From Candidatus Poribacteria bacterium (GTDB lineage: Bacteria; Poribacteria; WGA-4E; PCPOR2b): 64,000 bases of DNA. The notes beneath the pieces were generated by a model. The model did not search any database and was not told where the DNA came from. It saw only the letters and a program-made list of their open reading frames with translations. How positions within the stretch are numbered: the first letter of the stretch is position 1; each line of letters starts with the position of its first letter. The DNA lies in contig OZ220744.1 of assembly GCA_965116925.1 (NCBI GenBank), forward strand, positions 1,728,001 to 1,792,000, given 5' to 3'. Of this stretch, positions 16,389-24,927 are shown one piece after another. The position numbers and the translations under genes are program-made.

Positions 16389-17579
16389 TTAGAAGACACG
16401 GTAGTTGAGTACGACAGTAAAATTGCTGGTGATGTCTTGATCAGATACAATTTCAATCTGCTCTGTTGCCACTAGATTGAGGTTATTCTCAATGTAGTAG
16501 ATGAACGAGATTCCTAATGCCTGACTATTCTCCGTATCCCCACCTTCGGGCTTGGACAACTGAAACAGATGTCGAAGACGCAAGTCAATACGGTTGGACA
16601 ATTCGTAGGAAATATCGCTTGACAGGGATAACGCGTATGCGGATCCAAAGCTATCAAACGGTGTATTCATTGTAATACGCTCACTGATTTGCCATCGCCA
16701 CGCAATTGGCCGTGCATAGCTCGCAGTCACATCAAGATTCGCTATTGGACGATCTTGGCCCTCATACGGTGTGGTGATATCGAATTTGGAACCAAGTGCT
16801 ACGTCCCAACCATAGAACCGATCTGCGATATCCTCACGTTCAAGAATCTCCTCAATCCGAAGCACCCCGATTGCACTAAGTCCATCTTCTTTGAGCAGTC
16901 CTGATTCACGCATAACCGCTTCCATGTCTTTATACCACTCTTTTTTGTAGACCTCGCCGAACCTATCTTGATATTCGCCTTCGCGGTTGATAATCTTACT
17001 CAGCTCTAGAATCACGTCCTTGGGCAGATGGCCGCTAAGTTCCCCTTCGTTAATGAGAAATTCTTCGATGCGAACGGCTTTTGCCAGCGCAGTCGCTTCA
17101 ATAAATCGTCCATATCCCAACCCAACAGTCACGGCGGAAGCGGGCCGGTCATATACTTTTTGCATGTCTGAACTAGCACGGATGGAACCAAAGCTATCTT
17201 TGAGTAACGGATTGCTTTCCATCAGATATTTTTTGACGCCGGCATCTCCGTTGACTTGGTAATTGTTGTCATACTCATCTGTCTCTATGTTCTTATCCAC
17301 CAAACCGGACCCAATAATGTCAATTGAATAACCAAACGGCAAGGAATCATAGAACCTTTTGTAAATACCACCAATATTTCCTTTGCTGGTTGTCGCAGTT
17401 GATCCTGATGTTGCATGGTTCATGGAAAAATCAATGAGGAGGCGGTCCGCAGCACTGACTGGTACTTCGTAGTCAGTAACAGATACTTCTTGTGCAGATA
17501 CATCGTTCGCAACAAGAATAAGTCCTCCAAATAATACAAGTGAAGCTCCTAGCAGAGCATACGCACATCTCTTCAACAT
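16389..17579 (-). CDS. Uncharacterised outer-membrane beta-barrel protein
   Basis: AAGGAG RBS, signal peptide ending VSA, alternating beta strands with central helical insert, terminal LNYRVF. Confidence 0.75.
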   Translation of the reverse strand: MLKRCAYALLGASLVLFGGLILVANDVSAQEVSVTDYEVPVSAADRLLIDFSMNHATSGSTATTSKGNIGGIYKRFYDSLPFGYSIDIIGSGLVDKNIETDEYDNNYQVNGDAGVKKYLMESNPLLKDSFGSIRASSDMQKVYDRPASAVTVGLGYGRFIEATALAKAVRIEEFLINEGELSGHLPKDVILELSKIINREGEYQDRFGEVYKKEWYKDMEAVMRESGLLKEDGLSAIGVLRIEEILEREDIADRFYGWDVALGSKFDITTPYEGQDRPIANLDVTASYARPIAWRWQISERITMNTPFDSFGSAYALSLSSDISYELSNRIDLRLRHLFQLSKPEGGDTENSQALGISFIYYIENNLNLVATEQIEIVSDQDITSNFTVVLNYRVF

Positions 17580-17671: not shown

Positions 17672-17688
17672 TGCAAGTACTATGCCAG
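17672..17688 (-). promoter_or_regulatory. Sigma54 (-24/-12) promoter
   Basis: Minus strand CTGGCATAGTACTTGCA matches YTGGCACGNNNNTTGCW with correct GG-N10-GC spacing; about 90 bp upstream of 17579; divergent bEBP gene nearby. Confidence 0.8.
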
Positions 17689-17869
17689 CAGCGAGGGCCG
17701 CCTTATGCTCAACTGTTGTAAAATTAACGGGAAGCCCTATCAAATCTGGATTGATAATATCTTTCCACATATCAAAACAAAATTTCATACAAGCGATTAT
17801 TATTTTAGCAATATTTTTCAGAGACTTGAAAAGGCTAACTACTCTCCTCTGAAAAATCGGCAAAAAGCA

Positions 17870-17898
17870 TTGATTTTCTCTGATGTTTCAAGTAGAAT
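17870..17898 (+). promoter_or_regulatory. Putative sigma70 promoter toward the bEBP gene
   Basis: TTGATT-17bp-TAGAAT followed by a hairpin-rich leader. Confidence 0.5.
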
Positions 17899-18027: not shown

Positions 18028-19392
18028 CTAAAGTTTAGACAATTCTTATTTTCTTGATGTAGTCCTATCAAGGGTTTGTTGAATATCGTCGGCATTGATG
18101 TTTTTACCGAACATCGCAGAAACTAATCGGTTTTCCATTAAAGCCCGTAGATACCGCACCATCAACCCGCGTGTCAACTTAGCGGGTCGATACCAATCAA
18201 TGCCCAATGTCTGAGTTACCTGCTCGATGGTTACCGGCGTGTCAGTATGGGAAGTGACAGCAAATAGCAATTGGGTCATGCAACAGGCAACGAAACTGAG
18301 TTGGACAAACCGATTGATGCTTTTTCGACACTTGACCCGATAGGTGTCAAAGCCGAAGTGTTGCTTGGTGTCCCGAAAGGCGGTCTCAATCAACCATCTC
18401 TGTCGGTAGTATCGCACAATCTGCGGTAAATCTAGGGTTAAGTCAGTGGTAAAGACACAGAAGTATCGAAACGGCTTACGCCTTTTGTCACGGGTTCGCA
18501 TCACCACGACCCGAACGGGTTGTGGACACATTTTGGTTCGGGCGACTCTGGTTGCTATGGCATACTGTTTATCGTCAATGTCAGTCGTTTTATACCGCAG
18601 ATACGGCAGATGAATCCGTTCACCGTATCTCTTAGGTCTGCCGGGTTTGGATCGCTTGGGCGGAGTAGGTAACCGATAGAACACTGCATTCGACTTGGCA
18701 CGACACAACAGGTGGTGTCCCGCTTTAAGGACACAGCCAAACACTTTCTGTCGAGCGAATCCCCGGTCAAAGATAATCAGACCCGCAGGGATGCGGTTGC
18801 ATATCCGCTTCAGAACTGACTCACTAGTGTCGCGCTTTGTCTGTGGACACATCAACTTGACAAACACCGGAAAAAGTATCGTCTCGTGGACGGTGCTACA
18901 AAGTAATCCCAATGCACCAAACTGGTGACCATGGTGAAACTTCGATTGATTCGTGTTGCGTGTGTGATAGCGATGGTTCTTGAAAAAATGAAGTCCAAAC
19001 TGCGTCTGGCCGGTCTTTCGTGCGTGCGTCTCATCGTAAACGTAGACCCAGTTATCGAAACACCCCTGTAGCAACTTCAGCAGATGGTGAGCGACCCTAT
19101 CGGCGTCCCACTTGCCACGCGAAAGGAACTTCACCAGCGAGTGGTAACCCGTTTTCGGACGAACCGCTTGATAAATGCCGGTCAGCGTCGCACCCTCGCG
19201 CTGTGTGATAAGTCCCACAACAAAAACACAAAACAGATGAAAGTTTTGAGACTTGAATAACGGACGAAAATCGGTTAAAATAGCATTCAGGCAGAATATG
19301 AGGTACATAACTTCTCCTTTCAAAATTGTGATGGATTTCTGAAAGGATAACCTCTTTTCTGCCTTTTTGCATTAAAATTGTCTAAACTTTAG
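18028..19392 (-). mobile_element. Insertion sequence, IS701/IS4-like DDE, 1365 bp
   Basis: Perfect 17-bp TIR CTAAAGTTTAGACAATT; 8-bp TSD TAGGATTA at 18020-18027 and 19393-19400. Confidence 0.92.
18046..19308 (-). CDS. DDE transposase (IS701/IS4-like)
   Basis: YDET, IFDRGF, YRQRWLIETAFRDTKQHFG (YREK-type signature). Confidence 0.92.
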   Translation of the reverse strand: MYLIFCLNAILTDFRPLFKSQNFHLFCVFVVGLITQREGATLTGIYQAVRPKTGYHSLVKFLSRGKWDADRVAHHLLKLLQGCFDNWVYVYDETHARKTGQTQFGLHFFKNHRYHTRNTNQSKFHHGHQFGALGLLCSTVHETILFPVFVKLMCPQTKRDTSESVLKRICNRIPAGLIIFDRGFARQKVFGCVLKAGHHLLCRAKSNAVFYRLPTPPKRSKPGRPKRYGERIHLPYLRYKTTDIDDKQYAIATRVARTKMCPQPVRVVVMRTRDKRRKPFRYFCVFTTDLTLDLPQIVRYYRQRWLIETAFRDTKQHFGFDTYRVKCRKSINRFVQLSFVACCMTQLLFAVTSHTDTPVTIEQVTQTLGIDWYRPAKLTRGLMVRYLRALMENRLVSAMFGKNINADDIQQTLDRTTSRK

Positions 19393-21595
19393 TAGGATTA
19401 ATGAAACACTCCAAATTGGTAGGTCTGCGCCGTTTCAACCCACCACGGCACCTACCGGGGCGAAAGTGTCTATTTATTTTTAGAATTCACCATAATTGCA
19501 TTGTCTACCACCTCCACCCATTTGGAAAGAATTATGAATGATGATCACCCGAAACAAACATCAAATTTCCTAGATGTAGACGCCCCTGGGATCTTAGAGG
19601 ACATAGCAGAGGCACTACCAGCCGATGTCGCTTTCCTGCCATCTGAGGACATGGCGCGAGTTTATAAACTTGCTCATATGGTTGCCCAGTCTTCAAATAC
19701 GACCATAGTACTTAGTGGAGAGAGCGGTGTTGGGAAAGAAGGAATTGCACAGCTCATTTATAAGCTTGGTTCTCGAAAAGGGAAGCCATTCACCGTAGTA
19801 AACTGCGCGAGTTTTCAGAATAACGAACAGTTAGCCCTTAGTCAGATCTTTGGTCACATAAGAGGAGCATATACCGGCGCAGATAGAGCGAACCCTGGAC
19901 TCATTCTCGAAACTATGGATCAGGACTTAATCCTTGATGAAGAACAGGTGTGGTATAAACCACCGAAAGACAAAGAGGGTGGTATTTTATTCCTTGATGA
20001 AATTCACACCCTGCCCTTAGTTGTTCGATCACAATTACTTGTTTTTCTAGACTCTTATGCTTTCCGACCGCTAGGTGGAGGGCACCAACATCAACGACAG
20101 GTCAATATTCAAATCATTGCAGCGACAAACCAAGACCCCCACGAGGCATTAGGCCCAATGGATTTTCGTCAAAGACTGATGCAGGCCCACATTCATATCC
20201 CGCCCTTACGGGAGCGACCAGAAGACATTCCAGAACTGATACGCAGCTTCATGAAGAGCCACAATGATCTATATAAAACTAAGATTAATATTACGCCGGG
20301 CGCTCTTAGTGAACTTAACGATCGAGACTGGGATGGTAATATCCGCGAGCTAAAAACGATAATTAACCAAGCACACATCGTGGCAGCTTCAGAAAATATA
20401 GAATTGGATGCACGAGCTATAGAACTCGCATTTTACATGATGCAGCACGGGGACCTCCCGGGGCAAGTGCAGCCCCAAACAAAGGAAAAGATACAACTTT
20501 TATGGGGGAACTTATCTCCAAAAGAGCTTTGGTTGAGTTTGCATCAGGATTTTCCAGCACGTGAATTTGACAGATTACCCGAGGGCGAGCAGCTATTTCA
20601 TATTCGTACTGCGGCAGCTATGTTATCATCAACTGTAGGGAATCCAGATTCTTCAGAAGATGCTTCAGACCAGTGTAGGACAATGCCACCCCCGATTTCA
20701 ATGCCAAACGATTTACTAGACGAACTGACAGAGGAGTTCAAGGTAATCAGGGACTTTCTCAACAACCAGAGGCAGGGGACCAAGAACCGAGGGCGAGGTC
20801 GTCCTCCTATAGAAATCGAAAATATCCTAGGCGCATATTATTACATAGCCAAATACCATTGTGACTGGGATGATTTGAAATCGCTGACGGACTCGAAAAT
20901 AGATTATCCCTCACACGATACCTATAACCGTTTTTTTGCAGAGCAGCTTTATGAAAGGGAGTCATGCAGCAATATAGCAATGCAAGACAGCATTGAGAAC
21001 TACATTAATGAGTATACAGCATACGAGAATATGGTGCAGATTCCGGTCGGTGATTTCTACATGGGGAGTAACACTGAAGACACTGAAGATGACGCAAAAC
21101 CACAGCACAGGGTCTATGTGGATGAGTTTTCTATAGACCAGTCTGTGGTGACGAATGAGGAATATCAAGCATTCGTTCTTGCCAATCCCAAATGGCGAAA
21201 ACCGCCGGAGTCGCAAAAAAAAGATTCTAACCTCTACTATGATGCACATTATTTATTTCTTTGGACAGGAAATGATTACCCAAAAGGGAAAGGCAAGCAT
21301 CCTGTCGTCTACGTGAGTTGGTATGCGGCAATGGCGTATGCACAGTGGTTAGGGAAACGCTTGCCCACAGAAGCTGAGTGGGAAAAAGCGGCGCGCGGAA
21401 ATTTAGAAGATCAAGATTATCCGTGGGGCAACTCTATCACTGACAGACAGGCGAATTATCGATCTTTTGATAGGCATTATGCACCAGCCTTGTCAGTGGC
21501 TAAGAGTTATTACGACCCAAGCAGCTGTTTGTATAATATAGTGGGCAACGTGTGGGAGTGGTGTTTGGATGACTATGATCGCGATTACTACTATA

Positions 21596-22534
21596 ACCCA
21601 AGTTGCTACCTATAATTGAGTAGTTGGTTGGAGTTAAAGTTGATAGATACTGCTTGCTAATACAAACAAGACCACTTTCAATTCAAATCCTTGTTGTGTT
21701 ACGGCATGAATCGAACGAGGCAGCAATCGCTCAATTAAACTGCCAGCGGTCTCGACAGACTTACGATGGCAAGCCGCCACATAGGTCTCCCACTGTGGAT
21801 AAGGTCGCTTGGAATTCTGTTTGCGTGTCGGCTTGAGGTCCACTCCAATGGTTGCCAATATATCCTCTATCTCATAGTTATTGTATGCTTTATCCCCGTA
21901 GACACAACTGCCCGGTGGTAAGTCAAAATCAAAATACTGTAATCCCTCGACATCACTCATGCTTGCTGGCGTTAGAAAAAACTCAACAGGCTGTTGGCTC
22001 GCTGTCACTAACAGGTGAACTTTCAAGCCATAGAAGTACCGACGCTTGGACGCTTGATACCCACGAAATGCCTCATCGGTATACAGTTTTGACCGACTAA
22101 TGCGGATATTGTCACAGACCGCAATAGGCAGTGTATCTATCGCATAAATCTGCTGTTGATTGAGTTTTACATAACTTTCGGCTAAGATTTTGAACAATGT
22201 GATGAACATCGGTTTAATCCGATGCAACCGTCGATTGAAACGACTTTTTGACAGCATATTGGGGATATAGCCATGAGTGTGTAGAAAGTCACAAGTCACT
22301 TGGAAGTTACCACCGAAAAACAACGCAGCGACGACCCCGGTGGTCATGACCTCGGCGTCAGTCATCTGCGCCTGTGGAGAGGTTTTTGAGTTAAGTGCTT
22401 CTAACAGCTTGTCACAGAGATAGAAAATGGTTACAATTTGTAGGTCCATGGGTTTCTCCTTTTGAGGGGGTATGGGTGAATCCCCTCAAGTTTAACGGAA
22501 AACCCATGGATTTTCAATAACTAGCAACTTGGGT
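21596..22534 (-). mobile_element. IS982-family insertion sequence, 939 bp
   Basis: 13-bp TIR ACCCAAGTTGCTA; 7-bp TSD TACTATA at 21589-21595 and 22535-22541. Confidence 0.93.
21634..22449 (-). CDS. IS982-family transposase
   Basis: MTDAEVMT, SRFNRR, IDTLPI, YFYGLKVHL, GDKAY, RKSVET. Confidence 0.93.
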   Translation of the reverse strand: MDLQIVTIFYLCDKLLEALNSKTSPQAQMTDAEVMTTGVVAALFFGGNFQVTCDFLHTHGYIPNMLSKSRFNRRLHRIKPMFITLFKILAESYVKLNQQQIYAIDTLPIAVCDNIRISRSKLYTDEAFRGYQASKRRYFYGLKVHLLVTASQQPVEFFLTPASMSDVEGLQYFDFDLPPGSCVYGDKAYNNYEIEDILATIGVDLKPTRKQNSKRPYPQWETYVAACHRKSVETAGSLIERLLPRSIHAVTQQGFELKVVLFVLASSIYQL

Positions 22535-22788
22535 TACTATAAGAAACCGGAAAAAAATAATCCACTGGTAACGAACCAAGGGATAGATCTCAAATGGCTG
22601 GCGGATAAGGATAATTTTACAAATCTTGATGGAGAGACCCGGGTGGTAACTCGAGGTGGAAGTTATGCAGATTGGCGTGGGACACTAAAAGTTTTCACAC
22701 GCAATGCTAACACAAGAAAATCGACTCATCCAACGCTTGGCTTCAGATGCGTTCGTGAAGGGGCACGCAAGCAATAAAACAAAGAACA

Positions 22789-22907
22789 CTAGTACTCAGT
22801 CAGATAAGTTTTGCATATCAACAAGGGGATCGGGTGACCCGACCCCTACGAAGTACTATGAGTCTCAATCCATATAGACAATCATAATTTGCCTGACAGT
22901 GTACTAG
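22789..22907. mobile_element. 119-bp CTAG-bounded MITE, copy 2
   Basis: Only about 3 substitutions relative to 9468-9586. Confidence 0.9.
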
Positions 22908-22977: not shown

Positions 22978-24927
22978 ATGATCGACCGTCTGAAAAATAG
23001 ACTGAAGTTTCAGATTGAACAACTACTGTTACGCGGTGCAAACGCTCGATTGCTATTTATTGCGTCCCTAGTTGGCATTGTTGCTATCGCCGGCGGTTTG
23101 CTGGTACAAGCAACAGACACCCCCTTTGATGGTAACAACACGGCAATCTGGTGGGCATTTTTGCGTCTGACAGATCCGGGATACTTGGGAGACGACGAGG
23201 GCCTATCACGTCGTATGATTTCAACGGCCTTGACGGTGCTTGGATATGTCCTTTTCATGGGGTCGCTGATTGCAATTATGACGCAGTGGCTCAATCAAAA
23301 AATTCGCAATTTTGAGAGTGGGCTCACCCCTATTGTGCGGCGCAATCACATTTTGATTTTGGGCTGGACAAACCGGACGCCCGCCATTGTCGAAGAGTTG
23401 ATGTACTCTGAAGAGCGTGTCCGTCGGTTTCTAGAACTGCTCGGTGCCCGTGGATTACATGTAGTCATCCTATCCGAAGATGTGAGTTTAGAGCGAACCA
23501 TGGAATTGCGGAGTGTCCTCGGCCCGCTGTGGGATGCACGGAAGATTACATTTCGATCAGGTATCCCCCTACGGATGGAACATCTGGAACGAGTGGATTT
23601 CCGAAACGCCATTGTCATTATTTTACCGGGGGCTGATTTTGCTTATGGCAGCGCAGATGAATCTGATACACTCATTGTTAAAACAGTGCTATCAATAGCA
23701 AATCAGCAAGGTGCTAGGAGAAGTCAACCTTTACCTTTGTTGGTAACAGAACTTTTCGATCCGAGTAAAATTTTCATGGCACAAAAGGCTTATCAAGGGA
23801 TTTTGGAAATCTTAGCAACGGATGTTTTTATTACACGCTGCATGGCGCAGAACATACGCCATCCGGGATTATCACATCTATTCCACGAAATCTTGTCCCA
23901 CAGACAGGGAAATTCCATCTATATCCGTACCTTTGAATCGTCTACGGGTGCTCGTTTTTGGGAGTTGGCGGGGGCGTGTCCCAAGGCGATTTTACTCGGT
24001 GTAGTGCGTCCTCATCGCGAAGGGTTTCTCTCCATACTCAATCCAGCCAGCGATATGATTTTAGAATCAGGGGACCGCTTGGTCTTTTTGTCCCAGACGT
24101 ACCAAGATTGTGAAATACCGAAAGATTTCTCATCGGAACAGTCACCCCCTCAATTTCAGCCTCCATCACGGCAGAGATCTCAGATTCAAATTGAGCGGAA
24201 GCGACGAATCTTGATTTTGGGTTGGAATCACAAAGCTGCACGGTTGATTGGCGAACTGGACGACTATCTGCTAGAACAGTTCGAGATTTCGACGCTGTCT
24301 CGTAAGCCTACTGTTGATAGAGAAATTGAATTGGCACAGCAAGGAATTGACCAGGGCCGCGTGACAGTAAACCATTATGAAGGCGATCTCACTTCCCTCT
24401 CGGATTTGGAAGCCGCACAGCCAGGCAGCTACGATAATGTGGTAATATTCGGGAATGATTGGTTAGAAACGCAAGAAAAATCGGACGCACGGACAATTAC
24501 GGGACATCTAGTGTTAAAGAATGTACTTGAAGGATATGCCCAGGAACCGCGGATTTTGGTTGATTTGATGGATGCTAACAACATCGGGTTGTTTGAGGAT
24601 GAAAACATGGATGTATTGGTAACGCCGGTGATGGCAAGTCATGTATTGGCGCAAGTTGCACTGCGGCGGGAACTGAATGCGGTTTATGCAGAGCTGTTTG
24701 GTGCTAGTGGTGCGGAGATATGTTTTCGATCTGTCACAGATTATAACATAGCCGATCAGAAAATAAGGTTTGGAGCACTCAAGGCAATAGCGGCAGACCG
24801 TGGCGAAATTGCACTTGGGATTCGCCGCCAAGATAGCCCAATCGAGTTAAATCCGGTACAAAACCAAATTTACATATTGCAGGAAACGGATGACCTTGTT
24901 GTGTTAGTTCGGGAGGATGCAGTATGA
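22978..24927 (+). CDS. CASTOR/POLLUX(DMI1)-related ion channel with two RCK domains
   Basis: WWAFLRLTDPGY pore helix, two ILILGW RCK Rossmann starts, LAQVALRREL. Confidence 0.8.
   Translation: MIDRLKNRLKFQIEQLLLRGANARLLFIASLVGIVAIAGGLLVQATDTPFDGNNTAIWWAFLRLTDPGYLGDDEGLSRRMISTALTVLGYVLFMGSLIAIMTQWLNQKIRNFESGLTPIVRRNHILILGWTNRTPAIVEELMYSEERVRRFLELLGARGLHVVILSEDVSLERTMELRSVLGPLWDARKITFRSGIPLRMEHLERVDFRNAIVIILPGADFAYGSADESDTLIVKTVLSIANQQGARRSQPLPLLVTELFDPSKIFMAQKAYQGILEILATDVFITRCMAQNIRHPGLSHLFHEILSHRQGNSIYIRTFESSTGARFWELAGACPKAILLGVVRPHREGFLSILNPASDMILESGDRLVFLSQTYQDCEIPKDFSSEQSPPQFQPPSRQRSQIQIERKRRILILGWNHKAARLIGELDDYLLEQFEISTLSRKPTVDREIELAQQGIDQGRVTVNHYEGDLTSLSDLEAAQPGSYDNVVIFGNDWLETQEKSDARTITGHLVLKNVLEGYAQEPRILVDLMDANNIGLFEDENMDVLVTPVMASHVLAQVALRRELNAVYAELFGASGAEICFRSVTDYNIADQKIRFGALKAIAADRGEIALGIRRQDSPIELNPVQNQIYILQETDDLVVLVREDAV

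Follow-up and report, generated by a model that had tools for sequence, protein, structure and literature searches.

A likely transposase-derived DNA-binding module inside a sigma54 activator of Candidatus Poribacteria

The window that we analysed here comprises 64,000 nucleotides of contig OZ220744.1 from a sponge-dwelling Candidatus Poribacteria bacterium, a host belonging to the IS-rich symbionts of sponges. It carries an open reading frame for a protein resembling sigma54 activators, divergent from a presumed target operon (Table 1). From the N- to the C-terminus, the activator consists of an AAA+ domain, a helical subdomain, a module resembling the N-terminus of IS5 transposases and an FGE-fold head. 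Pfam recognised the sigma54 AAA+ domain with its lid (aa ~46-305) and the FGE-sulfatase domain (aa 509-698). The segment singled out in the earlier note (20701..20940, forward strand) does correspond to residues 401-480 of the activator ORF, and its sequence reads as quoted there. The module itself probably starts slightly before this segment, at residue ~395-402.

Table 1. Features of the activator locus; positions are those of the window
Feature	Position	Strand	Remarks
Presumed target operon, first gene	16389..17579	-	396 aa; predicted N-terminal signal-like stretch; no Pfam family
Sigma54 promoter (-24/-12, GG-N10-GC) for the divergent operon	17672..17687	-	Window and L011-L015
Candidate upstream activator site (or IHF-type site), 13-bp block	17794..17806	+	~110 bp upstream of -24; putative function
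Sigma70-like -35/-10 pair towards the activator	17870..17898	+	17-bp spacing; read from sequence; conserved in alignment
IS4-clan (IS701-like, PF13546) element	18028..19392	-	17-bp TIRs; 8-bp target duplication
Sigma54-activator-like ORF	19534..21615 (alternative start 19501)	+	693 aa from ATG; cut short by the IS982-like insertion
bEBP AAA+ domain	19636..20415	+	PF00158 (E 7e-39) and lid PF25601
All-helical subdomain, aa 306-380	20416..20640	+	Between AAA+ and IS5-like module; dN/dS 0.12
IS5-transposase N-terminal-like (DUF4096-like) module, aa 395-485	20683..20955	+	Family searches, hhalign, tblastn, joint alignment
FGE-sulfatase-fold domain, 5' part, aa 509-698	21025..21595	+	PF03781, E 1e-44
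IS982-like element	21596..22534	-	Inside the FGE domain; 7-bp target duplication; 13-bp TIRs that start with ACCC
FGE domain, severed 3' part	22535..22777	+	PF03781 positions 209-255; matches orthologue C-termini

Two insertion sequences interrupt the locus. The IS4-clan element, with nine near-full copies in the genome, parts the activator from its predicted promoter and is not found in the orthologous loci L011-L014. The other element—presumably IS982-like, judging by its ACCC ends—has seven near-identical copies in the genome. Both of its junctions lie inside contigs of the public runs X1 and X2, which may represent the source sample, and none of the contigs listed skips the element. Two IS elements have thus struck the activator gene recently, and in the source genome it has probably lost its full function. 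Repeats were also seen here. A MITE- or REP-like intergenic repeat of ~120 bp (window 22787-22907) has 45 near-full copies of at least 90% identity in the genome. A degenerate repeat of ~100 bp adjoining an IS end (window 19395-19497) has 27 copies of at least 80% length and 176 partial matches; a single IS copy at another place in the genome carries it as well.

The activator gene was found in six of the 176 genomes of the phylum, all from one genus. Its intact relatives are 736-802 aa long, as against 693 aa in the source genome. Homologues of 765-802 aa with the same architecture form eight clusters. The proteins of a second clade measure 736-737 aa and are ~41-45% identical to those of the main one. 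Relatives retrieved with the middle region of the activator came from Candidatus Poribacteria. Three short contigs in the RNA run X20 are ~95% alike to the AAA+ part only and do not demonstrate transcription. The raw-read run X21 gave no aligned reads. An ion-channel-like gene downstream (22978-24927, forward strand), whose product has Castor/Pollux and RCK domains, is syntenic in four of four orthologous loci.

Walker A, a GAYTGA loop, Walker B and sensor II are all present in the AAA+ domain of the activator, and an N-terminal regulatory domain is absent. These motifs are retained in both clades. The loop reads GAYTGA, or GAYTSA in some orthologues, and GAYTG(S) or GAYTD in the divergent clade; GAYTGA is described as a functional variant of the GAFTGA loop (PMC6615313). 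Between the loop and Walker B, both clades have an insert of ~20 aa with a conserved WY pair (window 19720-19960, aa ~128-158), which the other activators of the genome do not have. The R-finger stretch is shortened and one arginine is kept. The subdomain that follows (aa 306-380) is predicted to form three or four helices in an AlphaFold2 model of aa ~298-503, and matched no Pfam and no PHROG family. We rejected its interpretation as a decayed Fis domain, the hhalign probability being below 1%. Possibly, it serves as an oligomerisation element or as a second DNA-contact element.

The FGE domain begins ~20 aa after the IS5-like module. When the intact domain of the orthologue L012 was aligned with solved FGEs, both active-site cysteines were absent—that is, the pair after RGGSY, which we take to be the active-site pair of catalytic FGE. 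Since this pair is missing, the domain is probably a non-catalytic, ligand-binding head. We assume FGE to be a subclass of the CLec (C-type-lectin-like) fold; TvpA was among the matches of the L012 domain to solved structures. C-terminal lectin-like heads on signalling proteins have been discussed for the targets of cyanobacterial DGRs (PMC7517822), and the activator resembles these proteins in joining a lectin-like or FGE-fold head, proposed there to bind ligands, to the C-terminus of a signalling protein. In contrast to the cyanobacterial targets, no DGR template repeat for the 3' end of the activator gene (the FGE 3' end) was found in the source genome.

A sigma54 -24/-12 promoter faces away from the activator in six of six loci—the window, all four syntenic loci (L011-L014) and L015—against a genome background of 0.036 such motifs per kb. 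One match to an RpoN-box gene was found in the genome. The 13-bp block of Table 1 is invariant in five of five syntenic intergenic regions, as is a second block of 10 bp (17852-17861), likewise upstream of -24 and another candidate site. We also noticed a perfect inverted repeat (window 17813-17857) whose 11-bp arms are separated by 23 bp; the orthologues keep its A/T cores only. A resemblance of the intergenic region to the genome's IS5 ends was considered and dismissed, being no better than shuffles in seven regions.

In the presumed operon, the 396-aa gene is followed by DUF948-like, YtxH-like and amino-acid-permease-family genes. Its product looks like a secreted or outer-membrane protein; it is 69-91% identical across several genera, with paralog pairs in genus g6. 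Within the genus of the activator, the target gene occurs in exactly the five of 20 genomes that have the syntenic activator, these genomes being kin and not independent. Homologues of the target gene were found in seven of nine genomes of other genera without the activator. Four target loci of other genera had neither the activator nor a -24/-12 motif directly upstream, and some had upstream IS insertions. The divergent activator copy (genome G054, locus L015) lies in an unrelated locus with different genes behind its sigma54 promoter. Facing it are four genes without a confident Pfam family (L015 3509-6822, reverse strand), and the activator copy itself adjoins an EF-G-like gene.

The module in question lies between the helical subdomain and the FGE head. 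Its landmarks are GRP (aa 433-435), W456, P470, T474 and F479, and it is predicted to contain an N-helix, a post-GRP helix, a short helix and a C-terminal helix. The earlier note had likened it to the N-terminal HTH of an IS5 transposase. Direct family searches lean the same way at scores below the family cut-offs. DUF4096 was the top Pfam family in five of six isolated segments of 98-99 aa (E 0.0017-0.016; 15.9-19 bits), the best of them thus staying at 19 bits under a cut-off of 34.3 bits; it matched neither the divergent sixth segment nor the whole proteins in Pfam scans. For the noted 80 aa, the NCBIfam IS5 transposase model ranked first (E 0.011, model positions 8-52; below its cut-off). 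In the ESM Atlas, the best three clusters carry DUF4096 at 0.89 (180-184 of 256 features), a value just under the line of 0.9 and therefore a lead; the top cluster is called 'hypothetical protein' and has DUF4096 on 19% of its members. The segment of the divergent member gave no match in the Atlas.

Other searches with the module returned little. Among 1.84 billion representatives, phmmer (E<=0.001) found three members of the activator family and no transposase. PHROGs gave no HTH or transposase family, a PDB sequence search gave chance matches only, and tblastn against phages gave six unrelated weak rows. A phylum search with the segment profile yielded 11 weak matches, mostly chance or interrupted frames, one of which is an IS5 N-terminus (L057). 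Weak single-copy DUF4096 matches were also seen in ten other genomes, all within short or broken frames.

A profile comparison, akin to the HHpred run suggested in the earlier note, was more telling. By hhalign, 26 segment rows (25 distinct) were set against profiles whose sequences came from loci in related genomes, namely 27 distinct IS5 N-termini (30 loci), 18 ISAs1 (22 used), seven DUF772 and 23 Fis HTHs (of 25), with E-values being pairwise and secondary-structure terms left out. The probability was 90.6% for IS5, 21% for ISAs1, 0.7% for DUF772 and 0.1% for Fis, so an ordinary regulator HTH did not emerge as the better match. Against IS5, the real alignment scored 37.4, as compared with 10.8±1.8 (maximum 14.9) for 60 column shuffles. 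Taken alone, the main clade gave 88% and the divergent clade 85%. When 24 sliding 90-aa windows were drawn over the activator, three exceeded 15.4, all of them overlapping the segment. The part after GRP scored 24.7 against a shuffle maximum of 21.6; the homology signal is thus distributed, yet leaning on GRP. As for the IS5/IS427-type label of the earlier note, the likeness to IS5 held, while IS427-like elements were not the closest subgroup: the 'YPTDLTD' type, which we take to be IS1031-like, scored 36 and the IS427-like type 26.

When eight segment and 11 IS5 rows were aligned jointly, with a best pairwise identity of 25-34%, they shared 14 positions in the same order between P402 and F479; those outside GRP include W456, L462, P463, P470, T474 and F479. 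Since the identity of the module to any compared IS5 is only 25-36%, no donor could be identified. A tblastn search of 7.3 Gb of plasmids (E<=10) matched 34 records, of which 30 were listed. Among the listed ones, all 14 annotated matches were transposases, 12 of them named IS5, whereas an equal-length control from the same activator matched transposases in none of 18 rows. No plasmid match was significant alone (best E 0.5), and several rows represent related plasmids. One match that we inspected was the N-terminus of its transposase. The divergent segment gave two weak rows.

Structure prediction spoke neither for nor against the IS5-type fold. AlphaFold2 reached a pLDDT of 50 for aa ~298-503 (32 rows) and 53 for the segment alone (six rows); with such poor models, the best Z in VIA-align was ~4, and Foldseek returned no match. 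For the genome's IS5 transposase, a search by sequence gave no relative with a solved structure.

The nine-residue stretch of the segment's last helix is identical in two ISAs1-type N-termini (L016 5980-6324 and L017 1395-1883), which points to a common recognition helix of the IS4/IS5 clan. With the IS5 N-terminal domain (PF13340, DUF4096; NF033580), the module shares the four-helix prediction and the collinear pattern P..L(T)D....GRP.....(I/V)L.A..Y......W...LP....P...T....F. Unlike that domain, it stays below the family cut-offs, has short inserts and has lost the conserved W after the final F. Unlike IS5 transposases, it is internal to a host protein of 736-802 aa under purifying selection, without DDE or IS ends. 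Overall, we might conclude that the module is very probably homologous to the IS5 N-terminal domain and that, given homology, its origin from a transposase is also highly probable.

The remaining evidence concerns what the module would replace and how far it has been kept. As the earlier note had stated, no Fis-type HTH follows the AAA+ domain: HTH_8 (PF02954) was not listed by Pfam in the activator, and of the 39 HTH_8 matches across the genome, 25 exceeded the cut-off and none lay in the activator gene. The same note had proposed that the transposase domain was domesticated in frame, with no DDE domain or TIRs flanking it. Both points agree with our results. A profile of three IS5 sequences found no DDE domain in six frames of six gene loci (best E 0.35), and the genome's own IS5 end (one end type) matched the module flanks no better than shuffles. 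The segment is present in a single copy in the genome. The dN/dS ratio across homologs, estimated by the Nei-Gojobori method for five orthologous genes (10 pairs) with a bootstrap CI, was 0.21 (0.12-0.33) over the whole segment and 0.13 in its core, indicating purifying selection; it was 0.145 for AAA+, 0.125 for FGE and 0.47-0.62 for the flanking linkers. The module is retained in the second activator clade, ~41% identical, and its invariant residues include a basic R-G-R-P arm and a C-terminal T-Y-N-R-F-F helix. IS5 N-termini (DUF4096) occur in 121 of 176 phylum genomes, the activator in six of 176. A distribution 'widespread in mobile elements, restricted in hosts' is named as a signature of co-option in section 10 of PMC8987985. 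Because of the purifying selection, the retention in two clades, the lack of DDE and ends, and the narrow host range against the wide range of IS5, we favour domestication. Its direction, from transposase to activator, rests on parsimony of the 121 versus 6 distribution. A search for an intermediate form, with the same AAA+ and a Fis HTH, found none within a capped set of candidates, which lacked the known divergent clade as well and so may also lack intermediates.

Such evidence induces us to propose that the place of the Fis HTH in the activator was taken by a DNA-binding domain from IS5, domesticated long ago. We give this reading a probability of roughly 0.6, which combines our estimates for homology, for transposase origin given homology and for a DNA-binding role, the last being quite likely. 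By the general anatomy of transposases, IS5 N-termini should bind the ends of their elements. We found no experiment showing DNA binding by a DUF4096 domain in the accessible literature; on transposase binding, the accessible text of PMC8477213 cites an IS903 study only. The following scenario would fit. The N-terminus of an IS5-family transposase would have been captured before the split of the two ~41%-identical activator clades. The module would then bind upstream sites in the divergent intergenic region in place of the usual Fis-type HTH, the FGE head would gate oligomerisation on meeting a ligand or partner, and the GAYTGA loop would remodel sigma54-RNA polymerase at 17672-17687, thereby switching on the divergent operon. 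It is tempting to suppose a true host-transposase fusion factor, in which sites descended from or resembling IS5 ends act as enhancers and the lectin-like FGE head acts as the sensor; we see about even odds for this extension.

Several other scenarios deserve attention. The module might be IS5-derived and serve for dimerisation or as a spacer, DNA being bound via aa 306-380 or activation occurring from solution, as bEBPs without a DNA-binding domain do exist. Indeed, aa 306-380 occupies the usual position of Fis and is equally constrained (dN/dS 0.12), and no motif was clearly common to the intergenic regions of both clades—six 9-mers (<=1 mismatch) are shared, in AT-rich DNA and without a chance control. 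However, aa 306-380 matches no HTH, an invariant R-G-R-P arm with a T-Y-N-R-F-F helix would be expected of a module contacting DNA, and invariant non-promoter blocks are present upstream of -24. We therefore regard this scenario as unlikely.

Lower still is the probability of convergence, in which a generic three-helix bundle with an RGRP arm similar to an AT-hook would happen to score against DUF4096. The sub-threshold family scores, the share of the signal that rests on GRP and the failure of three methods on the divergent member (Pfam, Atlas, and plasmids with only weak rows) all speak for it, but 14 collinear positions are shared over ~80 residues, six of those named lying outside GRP, and both clades match by profile, and neither the shuffles nor the control segment give a comparable signal. 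Just as improbable in our opinion is a module homologous to IS5 N-termini that came from an unsampled family of cellular or mobile-element regulators instead of a transposase. With its last helix matching two ISAs1-type N-termini letter for letter, the module combines traits of the IS4/IS5 clan at large. The absence of a close IS5 donor (25-36% identity), an Atlas top cluster that is labelled 'hypothetical protein' and has DUF4096 in just 19% of its members, and the patchy presence of the gene in the genus, which fits horizontal gain, would agree with such a source. Yet no family of this kind appeared among the 1.84 billion representatives or in a search of longer proteins, and all annotated plasmid matches among those listed are transposases. 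Thus, a captured IS5 domain that binds DNA for the activator remains our preferred reading.

From the sequence comparisons, the activator is likely to be an enhancer-binding protein variant with a transposase-derived DNA-binding module. Known bEBPs include PspF-type proteins without an N-terminal sensor and LevR/PRD-type proteins with C-terminal sensors (PMC6615313). The activator is similar to these types in its AAA+ domain with a GAFTGA-type loop, its divergent sigma54 promoter, the lack of any regulatory domain at the N-terminus and its probable C-terminal sensing domain. It differs from them by having the IS5-like module instead of a Fis-type HTH (PF02954), an FGE-fold head in place of PRD/PTS domains and the ~20-aa insert after the GAYTGA loop.

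Reuse of mobile-element modules for DNA recognition in host regulation is also known from plant FHY3/FAR1, which are transposon-derived transcription factors (PMC13306707), from bacterial TldR, an RNA-guided, nuclease-dead derivative of TnpB (PMC10705468), and from Ner/SfsB, where section 10 of PMC8987985 describes co-option of phage and antitoxin HTHs and does not name transposase domains. Unlike TldR, which is a whole RNA-guided protein, the activator would contain a protein domain of a DDE transposase fused inside an existing bacterial activator; unlike Ner/SfsB, its module would come from an IS transposase. No report of the activator family or of a DUF4096-regulator fusion was found in the openly accessible literature that we searched. 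DUF4096, PF13340, PF03781, FGE-sulfatase and Poribacteria are all absent from the 11 supplementary files that accompany the recent sigma54 survey PMC12316311.

Finally, we would like to comment on what the finding means. In eukaryotes, both plants and animals, it is well established that new transcription factors can arise from the DNA-binding domains of transposases. In bacteria, such recycling has hardly been described, and the precedents in the accessible literature are HTHs of phages or antitoxins and RNA-guided derivatives of TnpB instead of protein domains taken from IS transposases. If our reading is true, the activator would be the prokaryotic parallel to transcription factors that arose in plants and vertebrates by capture of transposases, and would give a first functional handle on DUF4096. 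The sigma54 read-out is simple—one promoter, upstream sites and ATP-driven activation—and the question of capture is therefore directly testable in this activator family. The family would also extend the bEBPs by a new domain architecture, in which an FGE-fold head at the C-terminus is the putative sensor, from the IS-rich symbionts of sponges.
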